A stretch of DNA of 64,000 nt from Eledone cirrhosa (GCA_964016885.1 OZ024743.1:36146001-36210000), one strand, 5' to 3'. Shown: positions 4,641-60,619, counted from the first letter of the stretch. A program made the numbers and translations. Notes: generated by a model from the sequence alone, not told the origin.

Positions 4641-5079
4641 ATATATTAAACTTGAATTGAACATTTTTCCCAAACTGAAATGTATGAAATTTACTTTAGT
4701 TTACCAGTATTCGCTCACGGAAAGGCATCAACATCACCGCATCTCATTCTCCTATCTAATTTAAACCCTCAAACACTGGCAACTGAAAACATGGCTCGTT
4801 TCTGGCAATAACGTTTCTGAATTTTCTTATCCAGGTTCGTTAGAAATTGAATTTTACACCAGAATTCGTTGCAATGCAGGATTAATCTAGTAGTAAGTGT
4901 CGCATTTTGAAACTGTCTGCGCTTGCTTGATACTATGGTATTATACTGCCTGTAAATTTTGTATCACATTACAAAGAAGAAATGAAGACACTTTTATAAT
5001 AAATGTTACAGACCCCGCACTATCTTAATCCAGTACTGATCCGAAGATGATATTTTGTGAGTGAGAACCGCAAACTGTG

Positions 5080-5870
5080 ACAACCCTCAGTGGTAGAATC
5101 ATTTGAGTATCAGATAAAGTACATCAAACTATGTCAACCCTCAGTGGTAGAATCATTTGAGCATCAGATAAAGTACATCAAACTATGTCAACCCTCAGTG
5201 GTAGAATCATTTGAGCATCAGATAAAGTACATCAAACTATGTCAACCCTCGGTGGTAGAATCATTTCAGTATCAGATAAAGTACATCAAACTATGTCAAC
5301 CCTCAGTGGTAGAATCATTTGAGTATCAGATAAAGTACACCAAACTATGTCAACCCTCAGTGGCAGAATCATTTGAGCATCAGATAAAGTACATCAAACT
5401 ATGTCAACCCTCAGTGGTAGAATCATTTGAGCATCAGATAAAGTACATCAAACTATGTCAACCCTCGGTGGTAGAATCATTTGAGTATCAGATAAAGTAC
5501 ACCAAACTATGTCAACCCTCAGTGGTAGAATCATTTGAGCATCAGATAAAGTACATCAAACTATGTCAACCCTCAGTGGTAGAATCATTTGAGTATCAGA
5601 TAAAGTACATCAAACTATGTCAATCCTCAGTGGTAGAATCATTTGAGTATCAGATAAAGTACATCAAACTATGTCAACCCTCAGTGGTAGAATCATTTGA
5701 GTATCAGATAAAGTACATCAAACTATGTCAACCCTCAGTGGTAGAATCATTTTAGTATCAGATAAAGTACATCAAACTATGTCAACCCTCAGTGGTAGAA
5801 TCATTTGAGTGTCAGATAAAGTACATCAAACTATGTCAACCCTCAGTGGTAGAATCATTTGAATATCAGA
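5080..5870 (+). repeat. 54-bp minisatellite, ~14.5 copies
   Basis: Unit AACTATGTCAACCCTCAGTGGTAGAATCATTTGAGTATCAGATAAAGTACATCA. Confidence 0.95.
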
Positions 5871-6145: not shown

Positions 6146-6333
6146 GGGCGGTGAATTGGCAGTATCGGTAGAGGGTCGGACGCCATGCTTTCCAGCATAG
6201 TTACATCCCTTTACGATCTGAGTTCAAATCCCGCCGAGTATGACTTTGCCTTTCATCCTTACGGGGTCGATAAAATAAAGTACCAGTAATATACTGGGTA
6301 ATTGCTGGCCTTGTGCCTAAAGTAGAAACAATT
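6146..6333 (+). mobile_element. tRNA-derived Meta/MESC-type SINE (partial or inverted copies cluster at 5850-6130 and 6400-6850)
   Basis: A box TGGCAGTATCGGT, B box GAGTTCAAATCC, central GCCTTTCATCCTTACGGGGTCGATAAAATAAAGTACC, tail GCTGGCCTTGTGCC..AGTAGAAACAATT. Confidence 0.85.
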
Positions 6334-7094
6334 ATTTCAAATAGAAACTGTCACAAAATCACCACAGCGTGCTGCATACAACATACGGCAATAATAATGA
6401 TTTCTACTACAGACACAAGGCCAGCAATTTGGGGGAAGGGGAAAGTCAATTAAACTGTTGCCAGTGCGTCACTGGTACTTTATTTTATCGACTCCGTTAG
6501 AATAAAAGGCAAAGCTAACCTCGGCAGGATTTGAACTCAGAACGTAAAGAACCGTAACTCTATGCCAAGAAGCAGGGAATCCGACGCTCTACAGATACTG
6601 CCAATCCCAATAATAATAATTGCTTCTACTTTTGGCACAAGGCCAGCAATTATCACAGTATATTACTGGTACTTTATTTTATCGACCCCGTAAGATGAAA
6701 GGCAAAGTTCTCCTCGGCGGGATTTGAACTCAGATAATAATAATAATAATAAATTGTTTCTACTTTTGGCACAAGGCCAGCAATTACCCAGTGTATTACT
6801 GGTACTTAATTTTATTGACCCCCGTAAGGATGAAAGGCAAAGTTAATCTCGAATTCGGTTGTAGTCCCTCTCAATATCCCTCCATTTTCACCGTTAGTCA
6901 CACCCGAAAGATGGCATTAAGGTCACAACATCCTGTTTTCTCAATTCTTTTCTCTACCTCCCACTTTCCTCTCACTGCTTTTTATTTCTCCCAATACACA
7001 AGCACACATACACTTGAATATACAGTTATACATGTATGTATATACATATTGTATGTATATACATATTGTATACATCAACATATCAGGATTCTTT

Positions 7095-8003: not shown

Positions 8004-8204
8004 CAGGCGGTTTCTACCTACGAATACTCACAAGGTATTGGTCAGCCTGGGGCTGTAGTGAAAGAGGCTATTTGTCCAAGGTACAAAGTTTTCAAAATTT
8101 CAATTAGAAGAGAATGAGAATTTCCATGAGTGAGCATTAAAGTCCCTGTCACAAATTACGCGCATAGTCTGTTAATGTGTATTGGGTGTTCAGTTATTGT
8201 TGTG

Positions 8205-8385
8205 GATTGGCAGTATCGGTAGAGGGTCGGACGTCATGCTTTGACGTATAGAGTTACGGCCCTTGCCATTATGAGTTCAAATCCCGCCGAGGTTAACTTT
8301 GCCTTTCATTCTTACGGGGTCGATAAAATAAAGTACCAGTAATGCCTTGGAATATTTGCTGGCCTTGTGCCAAAAGTAGAGACAG

Positions 8386-8388
<3 letters not shown>
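8205..8388 (+). mobile_element. Meta/MESC-type SINE
   Basis: Same A/B boxes, core and tail as 6146-6333. Confidence 0.85.
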
Positions 8389-8430
<42 letters not shown>

Positions 8431-10599: not shown

Positions 10600-11732
10600 A
10601 TTGTAAGTATTGGTATATATTAACTGTATGTATGTATGTGTGTAAGCGTTGGTGCATATTAACTGTATGTATATTAACTGTGTGTATATATGTGTTAAGC
10701 GTTGGTATATATAAACTAACTATATGTATCTATGTGTTAAGCGTTGGTGTATTTAAACTGTATGTATGTATATATATGTGTAAGCGTTGGTATATATAAA
10801 CTAACTATATGTATATATGTGTTAAGCGTTGGTGTATATTAACTGTATGTATGTATATATATATGTGTAAGGGTTGGTATATATAAACTAACTATATGTA
10901 TATATGTGTTAAGCGTTGGTGTATATTAACTGTATGTATGTATATATATATGTGTAAGCGTTGGTATAGATAAACTAACTATATGTATATATGTGTTAAG
11001 CGTTGGTGTATATTAACTGTATGTATGTATATATATATGTGTAAGGGTTGGTATATATAAACTAACTATATGTATATATGTGTTAAGCGTTGGTGTATAT
11101 TAACTGTATGTATGTATATATATATGTGTAAGCGTTGGTATATATAAACTAACTATATGTATATATGTGTTAAGCGTTGGTGTATATTAACTGTATGTAT
11201 GTATATATATATGTGTAAGCGTTGGTGTATATAAACTAACTATATGTATATATGTGTTAAGCGTTGGTGTATATTAACTGTATGTATGTATATATATATG
11301 CGTAAGGGTTGGTATATATAAACTAACTATATGTATATATGTGTTAAGCGTTGGTGTATATTAACTGTATGTATGTATATATATATGTGTAAGGGTTGGT
11401 ATATATAAACTAACTATATGTATATATGTGTTAAGCGTTGGTGTATATTAACTGTATGTATGTATATATATATGTGTAAGCGTTGGTATATATAAACTAA
11501 CTATATGTATATATGTGTTAAGCGTTGGTGTATATTAACTGTATGTATGTATATATAAACTATATGTATGTATATATGTGTTAAGCGTTGGTATATATAA
11601 ACTATATGTATGTATATATGTGTGTAAGCGTTGGTATATATAAACTATATAAACTATATGTATGTATATATGTGTGTAAGCGTTGGTATAAATATATATA
11701 AACTATATGTATGTATATATGTGTGTAAGCGT
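10600..11732. repeat. Minisatellite with an ~87-bp higher-order unit (42+45-bp subunits, AAGCGTTGGT core)
   Basis: Alternating AAG(C/G)GTTGGTATATATAAACTAACTATATG.. and AAGCGTTGGTGTATATTAACTGTATG.. units. Confidence 0.9.
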
Positions 11733-16259: not shown

Positions 16260-16450
16260 GGGCGGTGAATTGGCAGTATCGGTAGAGGGTCGGACGCCAT
16301 GCTTTGACGCATAGAGTTACGGCTCTTGCTATTCTGAGTTCAAATCCCGCCGAGGTTAACTTTGCCTTTCATCCTTACGGGGTCGATAAAATAAAGTACC
16401 AGTAATGCACTGGGAAATTGCTGGCCTTGTGCCAAAAAGTAGAAACAATT
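16260..16450 (+). mobile_element. Full-length Meta/MESC-type SINE with 15-bp TSD
   Basis: TTATATAGTAATATA at 16245-16259 and 16449-16463. Confidence 0.9.
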
Positions 16451-16499
16451 ATATAGTAATATATGTATAAATAAACACAGTAAATTTCGTGTTTAAAAT

Positions 16500-17100
16500 T
16501 CCTGTTTCTTCTACAACAACTACAACGGTAGGCGATGGGGCCCACCCACAGCCCCGGCGGACAGAATGGAGAAGGCGTTTACCGGAGGACGGCAAGGGAG
16601 ACGCGCTGGAAAAGCCACTCCAACTCGCGGGGCTCATACCTGCGGCTGGCCAGCTCAGCGCCTATGGTGGTGAGTAAGGAGGTAGCCTTGGGGCCGAGGA
16701 CACCAGAAGTCTCCACTGCCAGGAGTACGACGGCAACCCTGTCGAAGAGCGACTGGTATTTGAGGAGTTTAGCCTCCTCAGCCCGACGTGCAGCAGAACC
16801 TGGGTCAGTCGTAGACTGCACCAGGTTGCGGCTGCAGAAAGTGTCGGTGCAAGTGGCATCCCAGACGAAGGGTTTGCCACCGCGGAACGGGAAGATGGTC
16901 ATGCCATCTAGCCTGTTGCCATCCCCTCGATCCAGCCCCACCGGCTCGAGCTGGGAAGGGAAGCCTGCAGCGTCCAAGCCAAGCTTAATGACCTCGTTGA
17001 GGGCAGCATGGCGTGGAATGCGGCCGGCACTGTGGCGACAGGAAAGCGGGTGGAGGCCAAAAGAGTCCACGGTGGAACCGTAGCGACTAGTGGAGTGTGG
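16500..17100 (-). mobile_element. CRE-like (restriction-like endonuclease) retrotransposon 3' fragment; relatives at 35013-35190 (+) and ~60920-61185 (+)
   Basis: GLHPLSC..AGRIPRH, LEP.GLDRGDGNRLDG (RPDG-like), WDATC.DT, KY, LAVETSGVLG, LFQRVSLAVLR(GNA). Confidence 0.75.
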
Positions 17101-17603
17101 CGCTGTGGTTATTACAAAACGTCACACCTTATAGGGTATGTGTGTGTGTGTGTTGGACGGTCGTTGAAATAACTTACTCGTAAAATTAACGTAGAAGTGG
17201 CTGAGTATTTCTAAGAAACGTATGAACAATTAAAGTAGTTCTTAAGGATATTCGCTATAAAACTGGCAAAGATAGTCAATTAAATGACAGGAAAAATATA
17301 TTTATTTCAGCTGAGTGAACTACAAGGACATAGAATACCACAGGGAACCGAACAGCTTAACTGCTGAACATCGCGATTTTCACAAGATATCGTAGGATAT
17401 CACTAAACTGTAGAATATCACTAAACTGTAGGATATCACAAAACTGTATCGATAACAAGATATTACGATAGAGAAATAAGAAAATATTAATACATTTTTT
17501 CCTGCAACCATTCAGAAATATATGTATAAGTGTGTGTTTGTGTGGGGGTATGTATGTATGTTATATATAAAGATATGTATATATAAACATATATAAATAT
17601 ATG

Positions 17604-18610: not shown

Positions 18611-18865
18611 CTAAGGCGGGTAAAATTCCCGAGATCCATGGACGAGTTCTCTCCAGCGGTCTCTGTCCCTCATTATCGCTGCCATGTCCTGCGTCTCCAA
18701 CAGACCAGTGTCTGTCCTTAGGGCATCAACATACGTTAACCTCGGTCTTCCTCTTCTAGTGTGTCCATGTAGGGGCTCCCACAGGAGCACTGAGTGCAAT
18801 GTCAACTCTGGATGACGGTGAGCATGTCCAGCTAACCTTAGTCTCCTCTGTGTCACTTTTGAGCT

Positions 18866-18868
<3 letters not shown>
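18611..18868 (-). mobile_element. RTE-clade LINE 3' fragment
   Basis: RRLRLAGHAHRH..LLWEP.HG...RGRP..TYVD.LR.DTG..DRDRWR is a typical RTE ORF C-terminus. Confidence 0.85.
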
Positions 18869-19900: not shown

Positions 19901-20110
19901 TATTTTGTTGCCTGTTATAGGTAAACATATTATGTCAACTATATTTTGTTGCCTGTTATAGGTAAACATATCATGTCAACTATATTTTGTTGCCTGTTAT
20001 AGGTAAACATATCATGTCAACTATATTTTGTTGCCTGTTATAGGTAAACATATTATGTCAACTATATTTTGTTGCCTGTTATAGGTAAACATATCATGTC
20101 AACTATATTT
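19901..20110. repeat. 41-bp minisatellite, 5 copies
   Basis: TATTTTGTTGCCTGTTATAGGTAAACATAT(T/C)ATGTCAACTA. Confidence 0.95.
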
Positions 20111-24802: not shown

Positions 24803-25127
24803 TTATACATATATCTATATTATATGCTATCTACACACCCATAAACATATATATATATAGATGCACATAGAGATATAATATATCTTTTTATATTTATAAT
24901 CAGATTCGGATTTCAGAAGGGAGACTCATTACCTCCTGCCTTCATCTAAACACACACATATACCCGTCCAAACTGGATTATGCACACATACATGAATCTG
25001 TACATGTGTATATGCGTTGTGTATACACATGTACAGATTCATACACACATACGCACACACACACTCAATTTCTTCCCGCTACCGTTTCACTATGTGTGTA
25101 TATATCTATCTATCTCTTTGTCTGTCG

Positions 25128-25167
<40 letters not shown>

Positions 25168-25199
25168 TTATGTATGTATGTATGTATGTAGTATGTATG

Positions 25200-25262
<63 letters not shown>

Positions 25263-25308
25263 GTCTATCTATCTATCTATCTATCTTTCTGTCTATCTAT
25301 CTATCTAT

Positions 25309-25664
25309 GGAAGAAGAATCAGGATGGAGAGAGAGGTGCTGTACCCCAGCAAGTTTTATGAAAGGTGGGTGAAAGTGGCGAGAATGGCCCGAGTGAATGG
25401 GCCTTCTCTCTATATCAGCCTGTAGGTTGAGGAAAAGGAGGAGGAGAGGAAAGGAGTACAAGCTCTTCGTACTCCTGGAGATGAGGGTTGCACATTTTTT
25501 TCGGGGGTCTGTGTTACCCATATAAACTGTCTCCCTCTATTGGGGAAAATCGACTAACTTTTAAATTCCATCTGTGATAACATTTTACACGTTTTTATTG
25601 TATGTAAACTTCCCCCTTTGTATTTGTCCCCTTCTTTTGTGCCCCTGTGGCTAATAAAGAAATA
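25309..25664 (+). mobile_element. 5'-truncated Tx1-family copy in (TCTA)n
   Basis: Matches the ORF2 end (31389-31505) and the 3'-terminal motif of the full-length element. Confidence 0.85.
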
Positions 25665-25701
25665 TATCTATCTTTCTGTCTATCTATCTTTCTGTCTATC
25701 T

Positions 25702-25975
25702 GAAAGTTGGGTGAATGTGGCAAAAGTGGCCCGAGTGAATGGGCCTTCTCTGTATATAAACCTGTCGAGGGAGATAAACAGACGGAAGACAGGAACATCT
25801 ACAAACGTGTTCCTGCAGTAACGTTCCCCCAACTGGGGATTTCAATTGTTATTTTATTATATATAAATATAGTTTATTGTTATTTATTAATGTTAAAGTT
25901 ATTTGTATGTAAAACCCTCGCCGTCACGTCTTGTAATGTCCCATGTTTGTACGCCCTGTGGCAAATAAAGAAAGA
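25702..25975 (+). mobile_element. Second 5'-truncated Tx1-family copy (different 3' UTR subfamily)
   Basis: Encodes WVNVAKVARVNGPSLYINL; ends CCCTGTGGCAAATAAAGAAAG. Confidence 0.8.
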
Positions 25976-26234
25976 TCTCTCTCTCTCTCTCTCTCTCTTT
26001 CTCTATCTATCTATCTATCTATCTAACTATCTTGATAGAGTAAGACACGCTTCGCATCGGCTCCGCTATTCCATCGGGATTTACCCTTACTATTGTAAGT
26101 ACCGGATAAAATTTTTAGTGCAACACATTTGGAACACTAACCCCTGTTATTTAGGGAAACATTTTTGCATTTACCCCCTTTTTAGGGGGTAAAATAAATA
26201 TCTATTTTTGCCGAAAAATTTCTTTCTTGGCAGC

Positions 26235-28071
26235 ATGGCGGAAAAGATGGCAGACATGTCTGCCATTAGCTCTGCCACGCCCCCCAAGTCTGAAGAACAA
26301 AAAATAATTACAACAAAATTAGACATTGAAACAAACAAACAAAATGAAAAAACAAATGTTAAGGAAAATGAGCAAACAGAAAACAAACAAACAGAAAATA
26401 ATACAAATAACGACAGGGCAACTTTCGCCCAGAAAACAAAGCAATCCATTACATACACACCAATTGACCTAACTGCCGCCAGAGAAAAACTGGCCGAAGC
26501 AAAGAAACATATTGTTTTGGGAGAGAACGGAATGTTTTCCATTAACTCCCCCCCAGAATTCAAGAAAGCCAGAGAAGAAAACACAGTTATATACAGAACT
26601 ATACTAAACCAGTCAAGAAAGCCAGCACAGCCCAGCCAAATGGAAATAGAGTTAGTCCTAAAAGACTATATGAAGAATATTCTCTTCATACGAAAGGACC
26701 GACTCTATGGCAGCATTTCGGTCCTAACAAGAGACAAAGAAACGGCGGTTCAGCTTTCCCTAAGCCCACTCTCGTCGACAACATATAGCTTCTATCCCTC
26801 CTACATGGGTAGAAGAACACAGAGGGTAAAAGTAAAAACAATGCTGCCCACAATGGACTTCTGGTGGGCTATTGCTGGCTTCATTGATATGGGCGAAGAC
26901 ACTATGCTGTCAATGGGGAAGGCAACTGGAGATGCGTTCCTGGGAATGGGCCTCGACATACTAGTCCAAATGAGGCCCGAAAGAATAGCACAAATCCCGG
27001 ATCGCATCTGGCTGGATGACCTTACCCCAATAGACATAATTGTAGAGGGGAGAAGACCAGCATGCTATTTATGCATGGAAAGGGGACACGTTAAGGCTAA
27101 CTGCCCGAAACGTATCCCCCAAAAAGGACTATTGCCCACACCCACCACAAACAGTACACCAGCACCACCCACCTCCAAAAATACACTAATACCACACACA
27201 GCAAACAAAATACAGACACCACCAACCACAAACACAACACAAACATCACCACCACCAGCACCAAACACAAGCACGACACAAAAATCACCACCACCAACCA
27301 CAACACAAACATCACCACCACCATTACCAACCACAAGCACGACACAAACATTACCACCACCACCACCACAAAACCCATTCCAAACAAATAATAAAAAAAA
27401 ACAGTAACAAATCTACCCCTCCCGCAAAAAAAAAACAACCACACAACACGTCCCTCCCACCTAGCGCTGAAGAGTTTCCCCCAACTTCTGAAGAAGAAGG
27501 AGGAGAAGCCTTCAGACAAGTTAAAAGAAAAAAAAGAAAACACACACCCAGCACACCACAAATAACCCACACACAAACACCAACTCCAATCAAAAACACC
27601 CCACCCTCAATAAACAAAAATAAATCTGCGCCTCCCCTCTCCGAAACATTGACAGCATCACAAAAAAAGACGTTGCAATACACATATATAAATAAAGAAA
27701 ACAAAAAACTGGTTAAATTAATAAACAATAACCCTATGGTGCAGACCGAAGGGCCAAACTTTATCTCAACAGAGAACTTCACCCATTTAAAAATGATAAA
27801 GGTCCCTCTGGACCTTTATCGTTCCTTAAAAGAACAATTTAGACGGGACGTGAGCCCCCCCTGTTTAAAACCGTTGAATCGCGTCCTCTTGAAAGATTTC
27901 CCCATAACCGCCCCTCTCCCTGACACAACTCCAAATACCCCAACCCCACCACACACGTGTACCCCCACACCACCACAAAACATCCCTCCACCCAACACAC
28001 CTGATGCCATGGAAATTACGCAACCCGGAGAGGTAAGTGCTTTTCTTTCTTCACTTTCAACACCAAAATAG
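26235..28071 (+). CDS. ORF1 gag-like nucleic-acid-binding protein with CCHC zinc knuckle; one frameshift at or before ~27400
   Basis: EGRRPACYLCMERGHVKANCP (CX2CX4HX4C) and a Pro/Thr-rich linker. The second frame continues EEFP..FRQVKRKKRK.. to TAG at 28071. Confidence 0.8.
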
Positions 28072-28076
28072 ATCAA

Positions 28077-31000
28077 TTGAGAGTTGGCTGTTTGAACGCG
28101 CGTGGCCTGAGCTCAGCTTGGAAGCAAGCAAAGCTTCTAAGTGACCTCAGGTCACAAAGTATAGATGTGATGGTTGTTTGCGAGAGTCGGATCAGCAGCG
28201 TGAGACAGCTGGCGCCCGCCTTCGATGACTTTGAGATGCACGCATCTCTCTGTCAACCCGGAGGCGGGGGGGGAGTTGCCGTACTGCTGGATAAACGTCT
28301 AACTCTCGACGTACAGATTGTTCACTCGGACCCGGGGGGTCGATTACTGGTGCTGGACGTCGGAGGTGGTGAAGGCGGGGCTTTCAGACTGGTCGGTCTT
28401 TATGCTCCCTTCGGGGCGGAGAGAGCCGACTTCTTCCAACGTCTGGAGACTTTTCTAGGAACGTCGCGTTCCCTGCTTTTAGTGGGGGACTGGAATGGAA
28501 TCCTAGATGCGCGTTGGGACTATGCAGGGGCATGTCCCGATAGAGGGGGTTGTAGCAGCCTCAAGGGGTTACTCGATCGATTCGACCTGGTCGATAGATT
28601 TCGACTAGATTGTCCAACTGCGCCAACCTGGACCTGGGCAAACCGCAGTGGACAATCTAGATCGTACCTAGATAGGTTTTTGGTTAGGAGTAAGGATAGG
28701 GACGTATTTAGTTGTCCAGAACTGATCATGGTTGGCTATTCAGATCACAAATTAGTGACCTGCGTGGTCAACCTTGATAGAACGCATAGACAGGGTCCCG
28801 GTTACTGGAAGATGAACTTGTCCTTACCGACAAAGAAAGATTACAGAAACCGGATTAGTAGCTTAGTTAAGATGCGGTTGACGGGAGCGATCGTCAACAG
28901 TAGGTGGTGGATATCTCTAAAGAGAGAGATTAGAGTAAGTTCGATAGGTTACAGTAAGGAACTAGCGGCGAATAGAAATAGGAGGGAAAGGGAGTTAACA
29001 GATAAACTAGAAGAGGCGATTAGGAGCGGAGACGTAGCCAGAGTGTTAGCGACGAGAACGGCATTGAGCCAGTTCTTTGACACGAAGCACGAAGGCTGCG
29101 TTGTCCGAAGTAAAATACGTGCTTTAGGAAACGAGGGGACCAAAGCTGTTAGCTGGGCCCGCGTGACAGAAGCCAAGAGTGGGATTAAATCCACCATTCG
29201 GTCTTTGCGAGACCAGGATGGACGGGTGATCCTTGAACCTGAGCGAATGTGCGAGACCTTTCAAAGGCACTTTGCTCGACTGTTCGGAGGTGGCGGGGGG
29301 CCGGACGGGGATGTGGACTTCGGTCCATACCTCGACGGTCTACCGCGTCTTTCGAGCGGCGAAGCGGAGTGCTGCGAAGGGCCAATCACAGCCACTGAAA
29401 TCGGGGAAGCGCTCAGCCAATGCAGCAGACGCAAATCCCCGGGTCTCGATGGTCTACCATACGAACTTTATTTAGCTATGCCGGTCTTGTTCTCCGAACT
29501 CCTCGAGGCTGTCTATTGCAACTGGCAACAGAACGGGAGAATTCCCTGTTCTGTGACCAAGGGCGTGGTCACGCTAGTGAGGAAGGACGAGAGCAAGGGG
29601 GACGACTTAAGTAACTTTAGGCCCATAACTCTGCTGAATGCAGAGTTACAGATTTTGGCCAAGGTGTTGGCGAAGAGGTTGGCGCTTGTGGTGGGTGGTT
29701 TGGTGGGAGACGCGCAGACATGCGCTATCCCGTCCAGGTCCATTCACGACAACCTCCACCTCATGCGATACATCATAGAGAGGGTTGGCTACGAACCCGG
29801 CTTTGGTGGGGCCCTGATCAACTTGGATCAATCTAAGGCGTTCGATAGGGTCGACCATGGTTACCTGGATGCGGTGCTAGCGGCGGCGGGCTTCGGACCC
29901 GTTTTCAGGGGCTGGATTTCTGCCATGCACAGTGGCAACATCTACTCTAGGATTAAAGTAAACGGCTACCTCTCGGAGCCGTTTCAAATCACCCGATCCA
30001 TCAGACAGGGGTGCCCCCTCTCCTCCCTTCTGTACGTATTGACTCTCGAGCCACTGCTGCGGAAGTTGGAGTTGCTGCGGGGCATACCCCTGAAACCGGG
30101 ATTGCACAAAGCGGTCTCGGCCTATGCCGACGACGTAACAGTAATGGTGGCGGACGCCTCGGAAATCGGGGCGATCGCCACCCTACTGGAGGAATACGAA
30201 AGGCTGACGGGGGCTAAGCTGAACCAGGACAAGTCAGTCGGTTTGCAACTCGGAACGTGGAGGGGCAAACCGATGCCGTTAGACGGTGTCGTCGGGCGGT
30301 GGACGGAGGGCCCGGTGAAGCTGCTCGGGGTCTGGTTCGGACCGGACCTCCAGGTGGAGAAGAATTGGGGCGAGGTGACGAGCAGGGTGTTTGCGCTGAC
30401 CCAGAAGTGGGCCAAGTGCAAACTATCACTGAAAGGTCGGGCGGAGGTGACGAACGCTTACATAGCGTCCGTCATCTACTACCGCCTGACCGTCGTGCCT
30501 TGCCCCAAGGAAAAGCTCACCATCATGGAACGCATGCTCTTCCAGTTCCTCTGGAAGAAGCGGCCTCCCATGGTGAGGAGATCCATCTGCTGCCAGCACC
30601 CTTCGAAAGGAGGGCTGGGTATGCCGTGGCTGTTAATGCGTAGGCACGCATTGAGGCTACGGCATCTACAGGTATTCCTCAACGGTCAGCCGGTGTGGGC
30701 CCCGTTTGTGAGGCGAGCCTTCCCACAGCTCGTCTCGCTCACCGAACTGCAATCCTGGGTGAAGCAAAGACCGAGAAAACTGGGCAACTGGCACACTGAG
30801 TGTGCCCAGGCGCTCACGGCTATCTGGCAAGCGGACCCGACTGTCAGTGGAGAATCCACCTCAACATTCTATAGAGGGTTGGTGGCTAGCAGGGGCGACG
30901 ACACCCTTGGAGAGTCGCTAGGCATGGAGGAGGACGAACTGGCCAGCCTGTTCGGTAGAACTTTCGGCCCGGGACCCATGGACAACTTCCAGAGGTCCCT

Positions 31001-31505
31001 AGCCTGGCAGTGTTACCGGGGGGCTCTGCCCGTTCGAGAAAAGCTCTACAGACACGGGCGCCCGGGCAGGGATCCCGCGAAAAAGATCTGTCCCAGATGC
31101 GTGCGCGACGAGGAAACCGTTGCGCATGCACTGGTACACTGCCCGGGCGTTGCCGATCTGTGGGGCTACGTCGAACGACTGCTGTCGCGTGTGGCGCCGA
31201 CTCGATTAACCGCCGAGTCTGTGGTGAACATCAAGCCGCCTCCTCCCTTCAGAAATGAAGCAGAGGCGGTCTTTCTGTGCGTAATAGCCATGATGAAAGA
31301 GGTTGTGTGGTGGACGCGCCTGAAAGGTCTGAGGTCGGGTGACTTTCTCTCCGGCCATCACCTGGTTTACTTCTTCCGATACCACTTCGGAAGAAGAATC
31401 AGGATGGAGAGAGAAGTGCTTGGTCCCAGACAGTTTTATGAAAGGTGGGTGAAAGAAGCGAGAATGGCCCGTGTAAATGGGCCTTCTCTCTACATTGTTC
31501 TGTAG
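28077..31505 (+). CDS. ORF2: APE endonuclease + reverse transcriptase + C-terminal zinc-binding motif (1142 aa)
   Basis: LNARGL, GDWN, YLDRF, SDH (APE); KSPGLDG, FRPITLLN, DQSKAFDRVDH, RQGCPLS, YADD (RT); CPRC..ETVAHALVHC. Confidence 0.95.
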   Translation: MRVGCLNARGLSSAWKQAKLLSDLRSQSIDVMVVCESRISSVRQLAPAFDDFEMHASLCQPGGGGGVAVLLDKRLTLDVQIVHSDPGGRLLVLDVGGGEGGAFRLVGLYAPFGAERADFFQRLETFLGTSRSLLLVGDWNGILDARWDYAGACPDRGGCSSLKGLLDRFDLVDRFRLDCPTAPTWTWANRSGQSRSYLDRFLVRSKDRDVFSCPELIMVGYSDHKLVTCVVNLDRTHRQGPGYWKMNLSLPTKKDYRNRISSLVKMRLTGAIVNSRWWISLKREIRVSSIGYSKELAANRNRRERELTDKLEEAIRSGDVARVLATRTALSQFFDTKHEGCVVRSKIRALGNEGTKAVSWARVTEAKSGIKSTIRSLRDQDGRVILEPERMCETFQRHFARLFGGGGGPDGDVDFGPYLDGLPRLSSGEAECCEGPITATEIGEALSQCSRRKSPGLDGLPYELYLAMPVLFSELLEAVYCNWQQNGRIPCSVTKGVVTLVRKDESKGDDLSNFRPITLLNAELQILAKVLAKRLALVVGGLVGDAQTCAIPSRSIHDNLHLMRYIIERVGYEPGFGGALINLDQSKAFDRVDHGYLDAVLAAAGFGPVFRGWISAMHSGNIYSRIKVNGYLSEPFQITRSIRQGCPLSSLLYVLTLEPLLRKLELLRGIPLKPGLHKAVSAYADDVTVMVADASEIGAIATLLEEYERLTGAKLNQDKSVGLQLGTWRGKPMPLDGVVGRWTEGPVKLLGVWFGPDLQVEKNWGEVTSRVFALTQKWAKCKLSLKGRAEVTNAYIASVIYYRLTVVPCPKEKLTIMERMLFQFLWKKRPPMVRRSICCQHPSKGGLGMPWLLMRRHALRLRHLQVFLNGQPVWAPFVRRAFPQLVSLTELQSWVKQRPRKLGNWHTECAQALTAIWQADPTVSGESTSTFYRGLVASRGDDTLGESLGMEEDELASLFGRTFGPGPMDNFQRSLAWQCYRGALPVREKLYRHGRPGRDPAKKICPRCVRDEETVAHALVHCPGVADLWGYVERLLSRVAPTRLTAESVVNIKPPPPFRNEAEAVFLCVIAMMKEVVWWTRLKGLRSGDFLSGHHLVYFFRYHFGRRIRMEREVLGPRQFYERWVKEARMARVNGPSLYIVL

Positions 31506-32230
31506 GTGAAGAAGTGAAGAGGAAAGGGGGAGCGCCTCCTCTCTGGGCTTCCCCCGCGAAAAGAGTTGCACACTTTTCGGGGGTATGTGCAATCCCCAAC
31601 ACGCCCCCTCCCTTTTGAGGACTTTTTATTGTTATATTATTATTGTTATTCCTTTTTTCTTTACTCGATTTATGTAAACTCCCCCACTGTGTAAATGTCC
31701 CCTTCTTTTGTGCCCTCGTGGCAAATAAATAGAAATTTATCTATCTATCTAACTATCTATCTGACTATTTATCCTAATCTATCATAGATCTCAATATCCC
31801 ACTATCACTTACAGTCAGTAAAATATCCTCTCTCCAAATATTGCCCACTCTATCTCTTCCCTCCCTCCTCTCTGCCTCCCCCTCTCTCTGTCTCCTCCCT
31901 CCCTCCTCTCTGTCTCATTCCTCACCCTTCTCTCTCATTTCCTTTACATCTAACGTCCACATTTTTAGAATCAAGTTATATCTTACTGTAGCCTTTCAAT
32001 ACGTTATATAATCCCACCAACACACACATAAAGACATGCAGTCACACAAAGAAACGTTGGCCTACATCCATTAGCGCCCGCTTCATTAATTATAAAAGAG
32101 ATACAGCCAATACATGTAAACATATATGAATATTAATAGACACACGCATGCACACACTCACACACAGACACACACACACGGCCGCGCCCACCCCCGCATA
32201 TACATATGTATGTATATATATATATATATG

Positions 32231-32368: not shown

Positions 32369-32736
32369 TGTGCGTGTATATATATATGTATATCAATGAT
32401 AAACATAGTTTCTCTCTCTCACGCATATATATATTTATAGATTATATATATCAGCATTTATATGTATACATGCATACACACATATACACACATACACACA
32501 CACACACATATATATATGTATGTGTATGTATGTATATACACACAATGCCGGAACGAAGGAGGGACACAGATAAACTAAATAGTCCTTGAGAAGGTCACAG
32601 AATGAGCGACGAAAATACTTTGACATCATCTAGTTATTGAATCAACCCATGGCTGGATTACTTACTTAATAATAAAACCAACTGGTGCTTCTCTCTTTAT
32701 TAACAACACACACATATTATATATATAGCCATTGCA

Positions 32737-32916
32737 TTGGCAGTATCGGTAGAAGGTCGGACGCCATGCTTTGCAGCATAGAGTTACGGCCCTTTACAGT
32801 CTGAGTTCAATTCCTGCTGAGGTCAACTTTGCCTTTCATCCTTACGGGGTTGATAAAATAAAGTACCAGTAATGCACTGGGTATTTACTGGCCTTGTGCC
32901 AAATGTAGAAACAATT
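32737..32916 (+). mobile_element. Meta/MESC-type SINE
   Basis: A/B boxes, core and tail. Confidence 0.85.
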
Positions 32917-34504: not shown

Positions 34505-35542
34505 TGGTAAAAGGAAAAGAAAATGCTGACAAATTGTTCCCAGTGAAAAATAGTTTAATTAGGAATAAGTAAAAATTAGTAATAGTAGTGGTTAGTATTC
34601 AGTTTTGGTTTTAAGTTTTACCGGTTGCGCATTTCTAATGCTTTTCAAAAATAATTTTGAGATAGAGCGCCCGTGATGTTTGCTCTCATCTGATTAGTTT
34701 TGGAAATTCTACCTGTTTTCTGTAATGATGTATGAAAAAATTCTATATATACACGCGGACATATTCGTAATCGAAATGACATATTCGAAATTCATATAGA
34801 ACTACATTGAATTACATTACCCTTATATATTGGTTTCTGATTTAGGCACAAGGCAATCATTTTTGGGTGAGGGGAGAGTCGATTAAATCGACGCCAGTGG
34901 GTTACTGGAACTTTATTTTATCCACCCCATGAGGATGAAACACAAGGCTGATCTCGCTGGTATATGAACTCAGAACCTAAAGAGTCGTAACTAAGGAATC
35001 TTCTCCCACACTCTACTGGCAGTGGAGACTTCTGGTGTCCTCGGCCCTAGGGCTACCTCCTTACTCACCACCATAGGCGCTGAGCAGGCCAGCGGCAGGT
35101 GCGAACCCCCCGAGTTGGAGTGGCTTTTCCAGCGCGTCTCCCTTGCCGTCCTCCGTGGGAACGCCTTCTCCATCCTGTCCGCCGGGGCTGTGTGTGTGTG
35201 GGGGGGGGGGGGGGGGGGGGAGATCGCGTAACATTCCATATTTAGGTATCCAGATTAATTGTTTTTAATTAGTAAGGTAACCACCTAGTGCTACATTTAT
35301 CAAGGAGACACACTATTCTGTCAATGATTGGTGCAAAGACACATTTCGGTGAGAAGTGGGCTATACAGCTGCTTCCAGTTGCTCCACTGGCTCGATCTCA
35401 ATGCTGCTAGCCCGAGTTAGTGAGATACAGTGTTCACCTGGGCAAGGCTTGAATTCAGATCTCAGGAAGTAATTCATGTCCCAAGAAAAATATTGTGCTA
35501 CCGATTCTACCGAAGTCTCAATACTAATACTCGGATTAGTAT

Positions 35543-40429: not shown

Positions 40430-40489
40430 GTGTGTGTGTGTGTAGATGTATATTCGAGCGTTATCTCTCTCTCTCTCTCTCTCTATCTA

Positions 40490-40793
40490 TGAAAGGTGGA
40501 TGAAAGTGGCGAGAATGGCCCGAGTGAATGGGCCTTCTCTCTATATCAGCCTGTAGGTTGAGGAAAAGGAGGAAGAGAGGAAAGGGGTACAAACTCTTCG
40601 TACTCCTGGAGATGAGGGTGGCACATTTTTTCGGGGGTATGTGTTACCCATATGAAATGTCTCCCCTATTGGGGAAAATTGATTAATTTTTAAATTGCAT
40701 TTGTAATAGTATTTTACACGTTTTTATTGTATGTAAACTTCCCCCTTTGTATTTGTCCCCTTCTTTTGTGCCCTTGTGGCTAATAAAGAAACA

Positions 40794-40794
<1 letters not shown>
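40490..40794 (+). mobile_element. 5'-truncated Tx1-family copy at a (TC)n/(TCTA)n tract
   Basis: Near-identical to 25359-25664; followed by (TCTA)n. Confidence 0.85.
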
Positions 40795-40840
<46 letters not shown>

Positions 40841-41528: not shown

Positions 41529-41626
41529 TATATATTACATGTATAATTAGTAAAGGTGTAGGAGAGAGAACTGGGGCTGAGAAGGACTAGGAAGAAGAGG
41601 AAGAAATAGGAGAAAAGGGTATAAAA

Positions 41627-41810
41627 TAATTGTTTCTACTTTTGGCACAAGGCCAGCAAAAACCCAGTACATTACTGGTACTTTATTTTATCGACCCCGT
41701 AAGGATGAAAGGCAAAGTTAACCTCGGCGGGATTTGAACTCAGAATGGCAAGGGCCGTAACTCTATGCGTTAAAGCATGGCGTCCGACCTTCTACCGATA
41801 CTGCCAATCC
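41627..41810 (-). mobile_element. Meta/MESC-type SINE with TSD
   Basis: AAGGGTATAAAATAAT on both sides. Confidence 0.9.
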
Positions 41811-42183
41811 AAGGGTATAAAATAATGAGGGAGTAAGAGGAAGTGTATAGTAAGGAGGAGAGGAAAGATGAAAGAGGGAGGAAGAGATTGGGTGGGAGTA
41901 AATATAGAGAAAGAAGGAGGAGGAAGAAATAGAGGGATAGTGTGAATGAGAGGGTGTGTGTATGTGTGTGTATGTGTGTGTGTATGTATGTGTGTGTGTG
42001 TATGTGTGTGTGTATGTATGTGTATGTGTGTGCGTGTACATATTTATATATTATTCTATCTATACATATATGTATGTAAATATGTATGTATGTATATATA
42101 TATATATATATATCACACACGGACATATATGTATATATATATATATATAATATATATTACGCACACACACGCGCATATATATG

Positions 42184-48481: not shown

Positions 48482-49153
48482 AACATTTGAACTCAGATCG
48501 TAAAGGGACGTAACTATGCTGGAAAACATGGCGTCCAACCCTCTACCGATACTGCCCTGATCACACCAAGGAAACAATGCTTCCATTGATCTTTCCGATG
48601 CTCATCTTATCTGCCGCCAGCAGTGCCTAGCACAACGAGCAACATGGAATAAAGTATATTGGCGAAGAATAAGCACCCCCCCGGTCCAGAAATGTTGTCT
48701 ATGGCCACATAATTGTGACTTTGACACCGTAAAATGTTGAAGGTCATGTGACTTCATCATAGTTTAATGTAAGAACCTTTGATAAGTTCTGTTTTAAATG
48801 CCAAATAAATAACGAGAAAGTTAGATATATTACTAAATTCCTTCAAATACTTCATTATTTTCGAAATTATTTGAAAATCAAAGCAGTGTCTTTCATTAGG
48901 AATATGGTAACAAAAGGGTCCTTACAATATTCAAATCATTCCTCACTATACATGCCGAATACGAAGGTCCATCTCACTTTTTTCCTTAATATTCTGAGGT
49001 AATATATTAATGAAATTCGGAGAATTTCATGTTTTACAGTTCGACAGTTCGACAGTTTATTGAACTCCATTGTGTCGAAATAAAAATTTGAAAATTACTG
49101 TTCCTTGTTTGATTACCTACACACATATGGAAATAAACAAGACACGACAGAAA

Positions 49154-49341
49154 TAATTGTTTCTACTTTTGGCACAAGGCCAGCAATTACCCAGTGCATT
49201 ACTGGTACTTTATTTTATCGACTCCGTAAGGATGAAAGGCAAAGTTAACCTCGGCGGGATTTGAACTCAGAATGGCAAGGGCCGTAACTCTATACGTCAA
49301 AGCATGGTGTCCGACCCTCTACCGATACTGCCAATCCACCG
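49154..49341 (-). mobile_element. Meta/MESC-type SINE
   Basis: Full consensus; CAGAAATAAT repeated at both flanks. Confidence 0.9.
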
Positions 49342-49689
49342 CAGAAATAATGGCAGTTAGTTCCGTAGAAGAGCTCGACCGACTTTTATGCTGCATATTA
49401 TTTAAATTCGCCCCTCTATGAACCCCCTTTCTTTTTACCAAACCATCTGAAGCTACCCATCGATCTATAAAGGAGGAAAAATCCATAAAAATGTAAAATA
49501 TATCTTATACAACTTTGAGACACATAGTCAGACAGCATGTCTTATAGTAGCATAGATCTATCTAATTCTACTTCCAGTATGCAGGAAATGTTGCAATCTG
49601 GATGCCTGCAACTAGAGAAGGTAACATTTGGGGCAGGATATACACCGGGCTTTCACAGATGCACACTGATAAGGCCACAAACCACAGTC

Positions 49690-53690: not shown

Positions 53691-53873
53691 GTGGATTGGC
53701 AGTATCGGTGGAGGGTCGGACGCCATGCTTTCCAGCATAGTTACGTCCCTTTACGATCTGAGTTCAAATCCCGTCGAGGTTAACTTTGCCTTTCATCCTT
53801 ACGGGGTCGATAAAATAAAGTACCAGTAATGCACTGGTAAATTGCTGGCCTTGTGCCTAAAGTAGAAACAATT
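53691..53873 (+). mobile_element. Meta/MESC-type SINE nested in an RTE-derived element
   Basis: Full consensus; the flanks match 55175-55460. Confidence 0.85.
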
Positions 53874-53969
53874 ATTGGATACAAACGATATCGCAGGTTT
53901 TATATCAGAATGACCTTCTCCTAGAGAGATGTCTTAATGAAGACTAGGAGTCTCTCGCCACCCCCCTCC

Positions 53970-59533: not shown

Positions 59534-60096
59534 CCTCCCGCCACATACACACGGAAGAGAGACAGGCTTAAACGTACGTAAGTCACCAAAGTGGAACGCA
59601 CTGAAATGACGTCTTGTCTGCTAGTGTCACGTGATATTACCAACACATTGGTGCCACGATCAAAGCACTAGACAGATGGTTTGTGTGTCAATCGGGATAT
59701 CATTTAACTATGTAGTTACTTACACACTCAGTCACCCTTGACCTCAACTTAAGTGCATCATCACATGTTCAAAGTGAGTGGATGGATAAAGGAAAAAAAA
59801 ATTCAAGTTTTAGTATATACTACAAAAATCTTTTGGCTTAAGATACGTGTATGTGTGTGAATGAGTGTGTATGTGTTGGAGATAGTGCGCGAGTTTATCT
59901 ATATGTGCGGGGGTGTGTGTATATCATGTGTGTTCATCTGTAATTTTCTTAATTTTTACAAAGAGAGAGATAGATAGATAGACATTTTCCAATATATATA
60001 TATATGAAAATGTGTGAAACAGGTATATTTGAAAAAAAGGAAAAGAATGACTTCAGTTGTAGTTGTAAACAAATTGATTTCATTTTATAATATTTT

Positions 60097-60286
60097 AATT
60101 GTTTCTACTTTTGGCACAATGCCAGCAATTATCCCAGTGTATTACTGGTACTTTATTTTATCGACCCTGTAAGGATGAAAGGTAAAGTTAACCTCGGCGG
60201 GATTTGAACTCAGACCATAAAGGGACGTAACTGTGCTTCAAAGCATGGGGTCCGACCCTCTACCGATACTGCAAATCCACCGCCCT
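60097..60286 (-). mobile_element. Meta/MESC-type SINE at the apex of an inverted repeat
   Basis: Full consensus; flanks 60030-60093 and 60287-60349 are reverse complements of each other. Confidence 0.85.
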
Positions 60287-60363
60287 ATATTATAAAATTA
60301 AATCAATTTGTTTAGAACTACAAGTGAAGTCATTCTTTTTCTTTTTTCATATATATATATTAT

Positions 60364-60619
60364 AGGGCGGGTAAAATTCCCGAGATCCATGGACGAGTTC
60401 TCTCCAGCTGTCTCTGTCCCTCATTATCGCTGCCATGTCCTGCGTCTCCAACAGACCAGTGTCTGTCCTTAGGGCATCAACATACTTTAACTTTGGTCTT
60501 CCTCTTCCAGTGTGTCCATGTAGGGGCTCCCACAGGAGCACTGAGTTCAATGTCAACTCTGGATGTCAGTGAGCATGTCCAGCTAACCCCAGTCTCCTTT
60601 GTGTCACTTTTGAGCTGAC
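60364..60619 (-). mobile_element. RTE-clade LINE 3' fragment
   Basis: Near-identical to 18611-18868. Confidence 0.85.

Follow-up and report, generated by a model that had tools for sequence, protein, structure and literature searches.

Four related copies in TC-rich microsatellite tracts

We analysed a 64-kb window of the Eledone cirrhosa genome (GCA_964016885.1 OZ024743.1:36146001-36210000) that harbours a structurally complete retrotransposon of the type that lacks long terminal repeats (non-LTR), called here copy C (26033-31737), and three 5'-truncated relatives, copies A, B and D (Table 1). Blastn and nhmmer searches of both strands placed all four copies on the plus strand, at the starts reported by a first-pass annotation of this DNA, and detected no fifth copy in the window. 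As also reported there, A, B and C are stacked head-to-tail; they lie 37 bp (A-B) and 57 bp (B-C) apart. The truncated copies retain the final 21-38 codons of the second open reading frame (ORF2) and the 3' untranslated region (UTR).

The first-pass annotation treated the copies as one young family. They are indeed related, but their pairwise identities span 51-94% (A/D 94%, A/C 72%, C/D 70%, A/B 61%, B/D 62% and B/C 51%). In the six possible pairs, the coding tail is 76-99% identical versus 43-93% for the 3' UTR. This better preservation of the coding tail indicates subfamilies that diverged while active, and the four copies represent three subfamilies at two independent loci. The A-B-C stack is thus best read as separate insertions of three subfamilies into one site at different times, and not as a tandem duplication. 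Truncation of B and D, two copies from different subfamilies, occurred at one and the same point of the element, a TAT similar to the target unit (25702 and 40490). All four copies lack a poly(A) tail, and the truncated ones end 6-8 nt past the AATAAA signal. A GCC-N4/5-GGC motif precedes AATAAA in 4/4 ends, but it folds no better than shuffled sequences (z -0.3 to +1.8), and a conserved 3' stem-loop was therefore rejected.

Table 1. Coordinates of the retrotransposon copies, their flanks and a further repeat in the window (TSD, target-site duplication; APE, apurinic/apyrimidinic endonuclease; RT, reverse transcriptase; SINE, short interspersed nuclear element)
Feature	Coordinates	Strand	Description
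Compound microsatellite, 5' flank of the stack	25099..25308	+	(TGTC)n/(TATG)n, then (TATC)n with TTTC-TGTC variants; pre-existing
Left TSD-like match of A	25278..25302	+	25 bp with TTTC-TGTC variant units; 6 nt before A
Copy A	25309..25664	+	5'-truncated; last 38 ORF2 codons and 3' UTR; AATAAA at 25653; 72% identical to C, 94% to D
A-B spacer	25665..25701	+	25665-25689 is the right half of the TSD-like match of A
Copy B	25702..25975	+	Most diverged, 5'-truncated; 51-62% identical to the others; AATAAA at 25964, then (TC)n
B-C spacer	25976..26011	+	(TC)n, then TATC units
Left TSD of C	26012..26032	+	21 bp, includes TAAC variant unit
5' UTR of C	26033..26234	+	202 bp; 5' end provisional
ORF1 of C, first part	26235..27407	+	390 aa; CCHC knuckle at residues 276-292; Pro/Thr-rich stretch; stop 27405-27407
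ORF1 of C, second part	27190..28071	+	Different frame, open 27190-28068; TAG 28069-28071
ATA codon	28068..28070	+	Nine codons upstream of the first catalytic Asn; overlaps the ORF1 stop
ORF2 of C	28077..31505	+	1142 codons from TTG, no stop; APE 17-224, RT 509-753 (YADD), zf-RVT 974-1029
3' UTR of C	31506..31737	+	232 bp; AATAAA at 31724, end 8 nt later; no poly(A)
Right TSD of C	31738..31758	+	21 bp; runs on into degenerate TATC units
5' flank of D	40464..40489	+	(TC)10 and TATCTA; TAT shared with the element (microhomology)
Copy D	40490..40793	+	5'-truncated where B is also truncated in the element; 94% identical to A; AATAAA at 40782; 5' limit approximate
3' flank of D	40794..40840	+	(TATC)11
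SINE-like repeat copies, among others	6151-6336, 8202-8390, 16262-16452, 32733-32915, 41624-41811, 49152-49342, 53691-53876, 60096-60292		

All four copies have the same orientation relative to their tracts, in agreement with the first-pass annotation, with TC-rich units on the sense strand, yet the window also contains tracts of GATA orientation (three with three or more units). The related claim that every copy starts after TCTA repeats holds for A and C and is marginal for D, which follows (TC)10 and TATCTA. It fails for B: here the 5' flank contains only isolated TATC units interspersed with TTTC/TGTC units, and (TC)n adjoins the 3' end. Copies A, C and D all meet TATC in one register at their 3' ends, and two variable bases (TA, CA, TT or GA) lie between the conserved 3' end and the repeat in the four copies. 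All flanks can be parsed as TNTC units (TATC, TGTC, TTTC and TCTC), and two of the four copies sit at a TC/TATC boundary.

Copy C is bounded by an exact target-site duplication (TSD) of 21 bp. As previously noticed, a variant unit makes it recognisable, and the 13-mer bearing this variant is confined to the two flanks of C in the window. A 25-bp TSD-like match that the first-pass annotation had missed brackets copy A (25278-25302 and 25665-25689) and constitutes good, if imperfect, evidence for a TSD. For D only a short TSD is possible, and for B none above 4 bp was found. Since variant units are duplicated across both C and A, the repeats are older than the insertions, and the TATC runs at the 3' ends correspond to target and not to tail. 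No family fragments were found at the remaining TATC tracts of the window.

Association with TATC units

Of random 12-nt stretches, 0.6-0.8% contain two TATC/GATA units; next to a microsatellite, which is the situation of 22% of window positions, this share is 2.6%. As an internal control we used all 53 other interspersed repeat blocks of the window, with their 106 ends. At least two TATC units were found at 6/8 ends of the family versus 1/106 control ends (Fisher p = 7e-8) or, per independent locus, at 2/2 versus 1/53 blocks (p = 0.002). The sole control block with terminal TATC units is the first copy of a 257-bp repeat pair (18612-18868 and 60363-60619, 95% identical). Tracts of (TC)n and (TATC)n account for 412 and 426 bases of the window, respectively. 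The target repeat accompanies three of the four copies, from the two independent loci; the criterion given in PMC4494074 is more than 20% of flanks. The family thus displays target-derived flanks, a fixed orientation and an enrichment of TATC at its ends.

Structure of copy C

Copy C comprises a 5' UTR, an ORF1 with a CCHC knuckle, an ORF2 coding for an apurinic/apyrimidinic endonuclease (APE), a reverse transcriptase (RT) and a zinc finger, and a 3' UTR ending in AATAAA. With its perfect TSD, it deserves the description of full-length that it had been given, in the sense of structurally complete. The 5' UTR contains a perfect 10-bp hairpin (26170-26193). At the 5' junction (26027-26038), the last target bases are followed by their own reverse complement to form a short palindrome; this could reflect snap-back synthesis, and the true 5' end may sit a few bases inside 26033.

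ORF1 is found in two parts. The first stops right after a run of nine A (27393-27401), and the second continues in a different frame. A fully open frame was obtained in 2/5000 shuffles of 27407-28071, and this rarity points to a single ORF1 interrupted by a one-base frameshift. Joined, the two parts would give an ORF1 of about 610 aa. Its CCHC knuckle matches Pfam with E=0.011, weaker than the curated cut-off, with the motif C-x2-C-x4-H-x4-C visible. No Pfam match to Transposase_22 was obtained, and a single-sequence fold for an RNA-recognition motif (RRM) gave a predicted local distance difference test (pLDDT) score of only 33, which is unusable. No relatives of ORF1 are present in a set of 397 proteins, and a PDB search returned only a Gag knuckle (E=0.2). 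The two ORFs differ in composition: ORF1 (26235-28074) has 40% A and 43.5% GC, and ORF2 (28077-31505) is G-rich with 55% GC, the window as a whole having 37% GC. GC-rich Tx1 ORF2s and discordant ORFs have been described (10.1101/788562), and ORF1 may have been recruited separately.

The ORF1/ORF2 junction (28030-28071) harbours a perfect splice-donor-like site, a pyrimidine run and an acceptor-like TAG. Splicing from GAG↓GTAAGT (28033) to TAG (28071) would remove 39 nt and meet a stop two codons on, and we rejected it as a way of fusing ORF1 to ORF2. Fusion by -1 frameshifting was rejected as well, as inspection by eye revealed no canonical slippery heptamer in the 28005-28071 overlap.

ORF2 contains the Pfam domains Exo_endo_phos, RVT_1 and zf-RVT, and no RNase H or further Pfam family at E<=0.1. 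The 1142-aa uninterrupted ORF2 of the first-pass annotation is free of stops over its 1142 codons, but the count begins at a TTG. The first ATG, at 28170, would give 1111 aa; it lies inside the endonuclease, past the first catalytic Asn, and there is no AUG in frame between 28005 and 28169. ORF2 starts 8-9 residues before this Asn in 75/138 scored relatives, close to the position of the ATA at 28068 in C; these are gene-caller starts, possibly at any codon written as Met, and the closest relatives fall short of the N-terminus. Unconventional, ORF1-dependent initiation of ORF2 translation is described for L1 and SART1 (PMC2881922).

Among solved structures, the best relative is human L1 ORF2p, with 170 bits over residues 5-852, ahead of R2 (55-82 bits, RT only); the comparison does not extend to CR1, RTE and I, for which the search offered no solved ORF2. 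Human L1 ORF2p also aligns at the catalytic residues, both those of the endonuclease (Asn, Glu, Tyr, Asp-x-Asn, Asp and SDH) and those of the RT. The same search gave no match to an R1/TRAS endonuclease structure. According to alignments, the β-hairpin loop of the endonuclease has nine residues, as in the promiscuous L1 enzyme, versus 11 in Tx1L, TRAS1 and most of the sister clade.

Relatives and clade placement

Relatives of the C ORF2 from named hosts, all labelled hypothetical or unnamed, are three proteins of Argonauta hians (P0045, P0142 and P0169; 62-67% identity) and one of the cuttlefish Acanthosepion pharaonis (P0310; 48%). In an IQ-TREE RT tree of 45 sequences selected from the 397, over 280 columns, C groups with Argonauta (support 94) inside a clade with the cuttlefish protein (support 100), a grouping that recurs in a FastTree of 239 sequences. 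Beyond this cephalopod clade, the nearest matches are 36-41% identical in the RT and mostly unnamed.

ORF2 has the APE-RT-Cys/His finger layout and an RT nearer to L1 than to R2. Together with the TSD and the truncated copies, these are features of APE-type non-LTR retrotransposons of the L1 group; the Transposase_22 ORF1 and 3' poly(A) of vertebrate-type L1 are both lacking. Judging from its predicted proteins, C is a member of a coleoid L1-group lineage. Tx1 is the likely clade given the type of ORF1 and the domain layout. In non-mammalian animals, ORF1s with RRM/zf-CCHC domains have been described as fitting Tx1 (PMC5203782), and there are reports of an expansion of L1-Tx1 elements in coleoids (PMC8967140) and of their wide occurrence among molluscs (PMC10294476).

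Age and activity of copy C

ORF2 offers 431 single-base routes to a stop codon, and its integrity sets a bound on neutral decay: with equal rates this is about 2.1% (95%), and with an assumed 0.07 frameshifts per substitution it is 0.8%. The CpG observed/expected ratio is 0.9. The open ORF2 and the perfect TSD make the label 'young' in the first-pass annotation a fair one: C is a recent insertion, under about 1-2% decay. The proposal that it is a candidate active element is weakened, barring assembly errors. The ORF1 frameshift and the lack of an AUG ahead of the endonuclease mean that C as assembled is probably not autonomous. In the assembly, its two ORFs are not both intact and translatable, and the closest copy in the window is 72% identical.

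Alternatively, C might be fully intact and active, its two apparent defects being assembly errors or normal features, such as initiation at a non-AUG codon in connection with the overlapping stop. The frameshift most likely lies in the A9 run, typical of long-read error, and the open ORF2, perfect TSD and CpG ratio would fit an intact element, as would unconventional initiation of the kind known in L1 and SART1. At ORF2 residue 525, C has Gln (K525Q) where 234/238 relatives have the finger lysine, whose L1 counterpart, K541, contacts the template-primer (PMC10830420). We rejected K525Q as a disabling private mutation, since it is shared with Argonauta P0142 and thus inherited. Nevertheless, this alternative, which we regard as rather unlikely, requires two separate defects to be explained away, and the starts of the relatives ahead of the catalytic Asn speak against it. 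In addition, C deviates at 27/379 columns that are invariant in close relatives (7%; 0.4-18% for the others), and its RT carries a private one-codon insertion.

Proposed insertion model and alternatives

We consider it likely that a two-ORF, APE-type lineage of the L1 group, most probably Tx1 and native to coleoids, inserts into pre-existing pyrimidine-strand microsatellites, mostly (TATC)n in TC/TATC tracts. Of the targeting of (TCTA)n/(GATA)n initially proposed, insertion into pre-existing TATC-rich tracts is retained, given the variant-unit TSDs, and strict TCTA specificity is not. The insertions would occur in compound TC/TATC tracts by target-primed reverse transcription, the standard route (PMC2881922). 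ORF2p would nick the purine strand at 5'-GATA↓GATA-3' (TATC↓TATC on the top strand), and the resulting 3'-OH would prime reverse transcription about 6-8 nt past AATAAA, with no poly(A) copied. A second, top-strand nick 21-25 bp downstream would generate the TSD, and truncated copies would join at their 5' ends via TAT microhomology. As each insertion would duplicate the tract and leave a fresh target, the site would remain a target, which could account for three subfamilies stacked over time.

Several points weigh against this reading. Only two independent loci in 64 kb underlie it, and the pattern was spotted before it was tested. The TSD-like match of A is 6 nt off the 5' end, and an identical 25-mer is also present at 25250-25274; neither end of B passes the TATC test, nor does B show a clear TSD. 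Six or more further TATC/GATA tracts with at least three units are empty, which neither proves nor harms a preference. The L1-length hairpin loop means that the protein gives no positive sign of stringency. Finally, named Tx1 proteins such as those of Kibi, Koshi, Keno or Dewa are absent from the matches listed, so that the RT trees have no such anchor and Tx1 membership stays at probable.

How the preference arises can be viewed in several ways. The first-pass annotation proposed a tetranucleotide-specific endonuclease, i.e. one that recognises the four-base TCTA/GATA unit itself. The common register of A, C and D would agree with this, as would the location of 3/4 3' ends at TATC when (TC)n is about as abundant in the window. 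However, B lies at TC, TGTC and TTTC units, the target of A includes TTTC-TGTC units, two of the four copies are at TC/TATC boundaries, and the hairpin loop has the length of that of L1. With B off-unit, flanks that are all TNTC and two independent loci, strict specificity is unsupported, and we hold it to be doubtful; the endonuclease probably reads a TC↓T step in TNTC repeats. An enzyme that nicks loosely could also yield the observed preference if read-through transcripts with (UAUC)n annealed and primed only at (GATA)n nicks. Pairing of this kind has been proposed for L1/Alu poly(A) (PMC3812793), poly(A) was copied in 0/4 copies, and the TSD cannot reveal how many of the first bases derive from RNA. 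The break of B and D at the same TAT also indicates that pairing matters at the 5' junction. On the other hand, the two variable bases before the repeat fit priming at a defined end better than read-through copying. Moreover, the isolated Tx1L endonuclease is itself sequence-specific, with its hairpin loop implicated (PMC1950540), which makes the endonuclease the likelier determinant. Pairing as the source of the preference seems to us an improbable but still serious rival, and a preference set by the endonuclease for TC↓T steps within TATC-rich tracts is likely.

There might also be no targeting at all, the TATC runs being tails made by the element, or the copies having gathered at a local hotspot or passively in DNA rich in repeats. 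The large share of microsatellite-adjacent positions in the window and the presence of 3/4 copies at one site would be compatible with this, and Drosophila Waldo-A/B elements are described as accumulating passively near (CA)n (PMC3812793). We nevertheless find it very hard to sustain: the duplicated variant units show that the repeats pre-date the insertions, 5' ends truncated at differing places also abut TATC, and TATC/GATA units are scarce both next to microsatellites in general and at the ends of the other repeats. Insertion into pre-existing TATC-rich tracts, probably guided by the endonuclease, accordingly remains our preferred interpretation.

Other repeats in the window

Additional repeats were observed elsewhere in the window. 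Two copies of one frame, 92% identical over 184 bp, are present at 16579-17121 (minus strand) and 34995-35231 (plus strand); we take this frame to resemble the C-terminal restriction-like endonuclease of R2-group/HERO long interspersed nuclear elements (LINEs). A fragment of a different LINE reverse transcriptase (RVT_1, E=0.018) is found at about 590-1222, after a long (TA)n run. A SINE-like repeat of about 190 bp is abundant, with copies 85-96% identical (Table 1); Rfam returned no match in the window, and none at gathering score for this repeat. Lastly, homogeneous minisatellites occupy 5071-5870, 10685-11557 and 19901-20110, with units of 54, 87 and 41 bp, respectively, and 96-98% matches.

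Relation to known elements and implications

Several APE-type elements are microsatellite specialists. Kibi inserts into (TC)n and Koshi into (TTC)n in teleost fishes (PMC4494074, PMC3812793), as the first-pass annotation had stated, and eight crocodilian Tx1 families (Tx1-1_Crp, Tx1-5_Crp, Tx1-6_Crp, Tx1-1_Gav and Tx1-2/3/5/8_AMi) prefer (TTCC)n/(TTTC)n (PMC4494074). As printed in these sources, the target units of Kibi, Koshi and the crocodilian families all end in TC. Here, insertion into (TC)n, (TTC)n, (TTCC)n or (TTTC)n does not apply to A, C and D, which are all at (TATC)n. The Kibi target, (TC)n, adjoins B alone; this comparison is made by target description and not by sequence. The crocodilian families share with the Eledone copies a tetranucleotide preference, a unit ending in C or TC and a habit common to related families, but the unit here is TATC, which is not pure pyrimidine, and the host is a mollusc.

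Waldo belongs to the R1 clade, and the ORF2 described here differs from it in matching L1 ORF2p and no R1/TRAS endonuclease structure. Waldo is likewise an APE-type element in a tetranucleotide repeat, but a different one, (ACAY)n (PMC3812793). Tx1L of Xenopus laevis is the type element of the Tx1 clade, and its isolated endonuclease nicks its own target almost exclusively (PMC1950540); it differs in targeting the Tx1D transposon and in its longer hairpin loop. Human LINE-1 shares with C the aligned APE and RT catalytic residues, long TSDs and frequent 5' truncation. In contrast with LINE-1, C has no Transposase_22 ORF1, no poly(A), a GC-rich ORF2 and a microsatellite preference. The Argonauta and Acanthosepion LINE proteins belong to the same lineage.

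Tx1 is among the three groups to which most target-specific families belong (PMC4640811). In the literature searched, we found no Tx1 element targeting TATC/GATA and no target analysis in cephalopods, although Repbase, Kojima and Fujiwara 2004 or the tree figure and supplement of PMC4494074 may hold one. Tetranucleotide targeting by Tx1/APE elements is already known; the TATC unit and the mollusc host look new. A more tentative view, which we think improbable on balance, is that of an undescribed coleoid-wide Tx1 lineage whose octopod branch reduced the 11 residues of its hairpin loop to 9 and moved on to (TATC)n, B keeping an older, (TC)n-like target.

If true, the Eledone lineage would be the first to specialise in GATA repeats and, within the literature searched, also the first Tx1 of molluscs to target microsatellites. 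It would have one core cut in common with Kibi, Koshi and the crocodilian families (A↓GA in the purine strand), and its co-existing subfamilies would represent a natural series for the change of repeat unit by an APE endonuclease. The choice of microsatellites by APE-type elements is described as poorly understood (PMC3812793). A young lineage with readable TSDs, a new unit and diverged subfamilies would make the question of endonuclease versus RNA pairing testable with simple substrates. More generally, the range of Tx1 elements that target microsatellites would widen from vertebrates to include cephalopods, whose genomes abound in such tracts; in these animals, insertions may disrupt or duplicate TATC/GATA markers.

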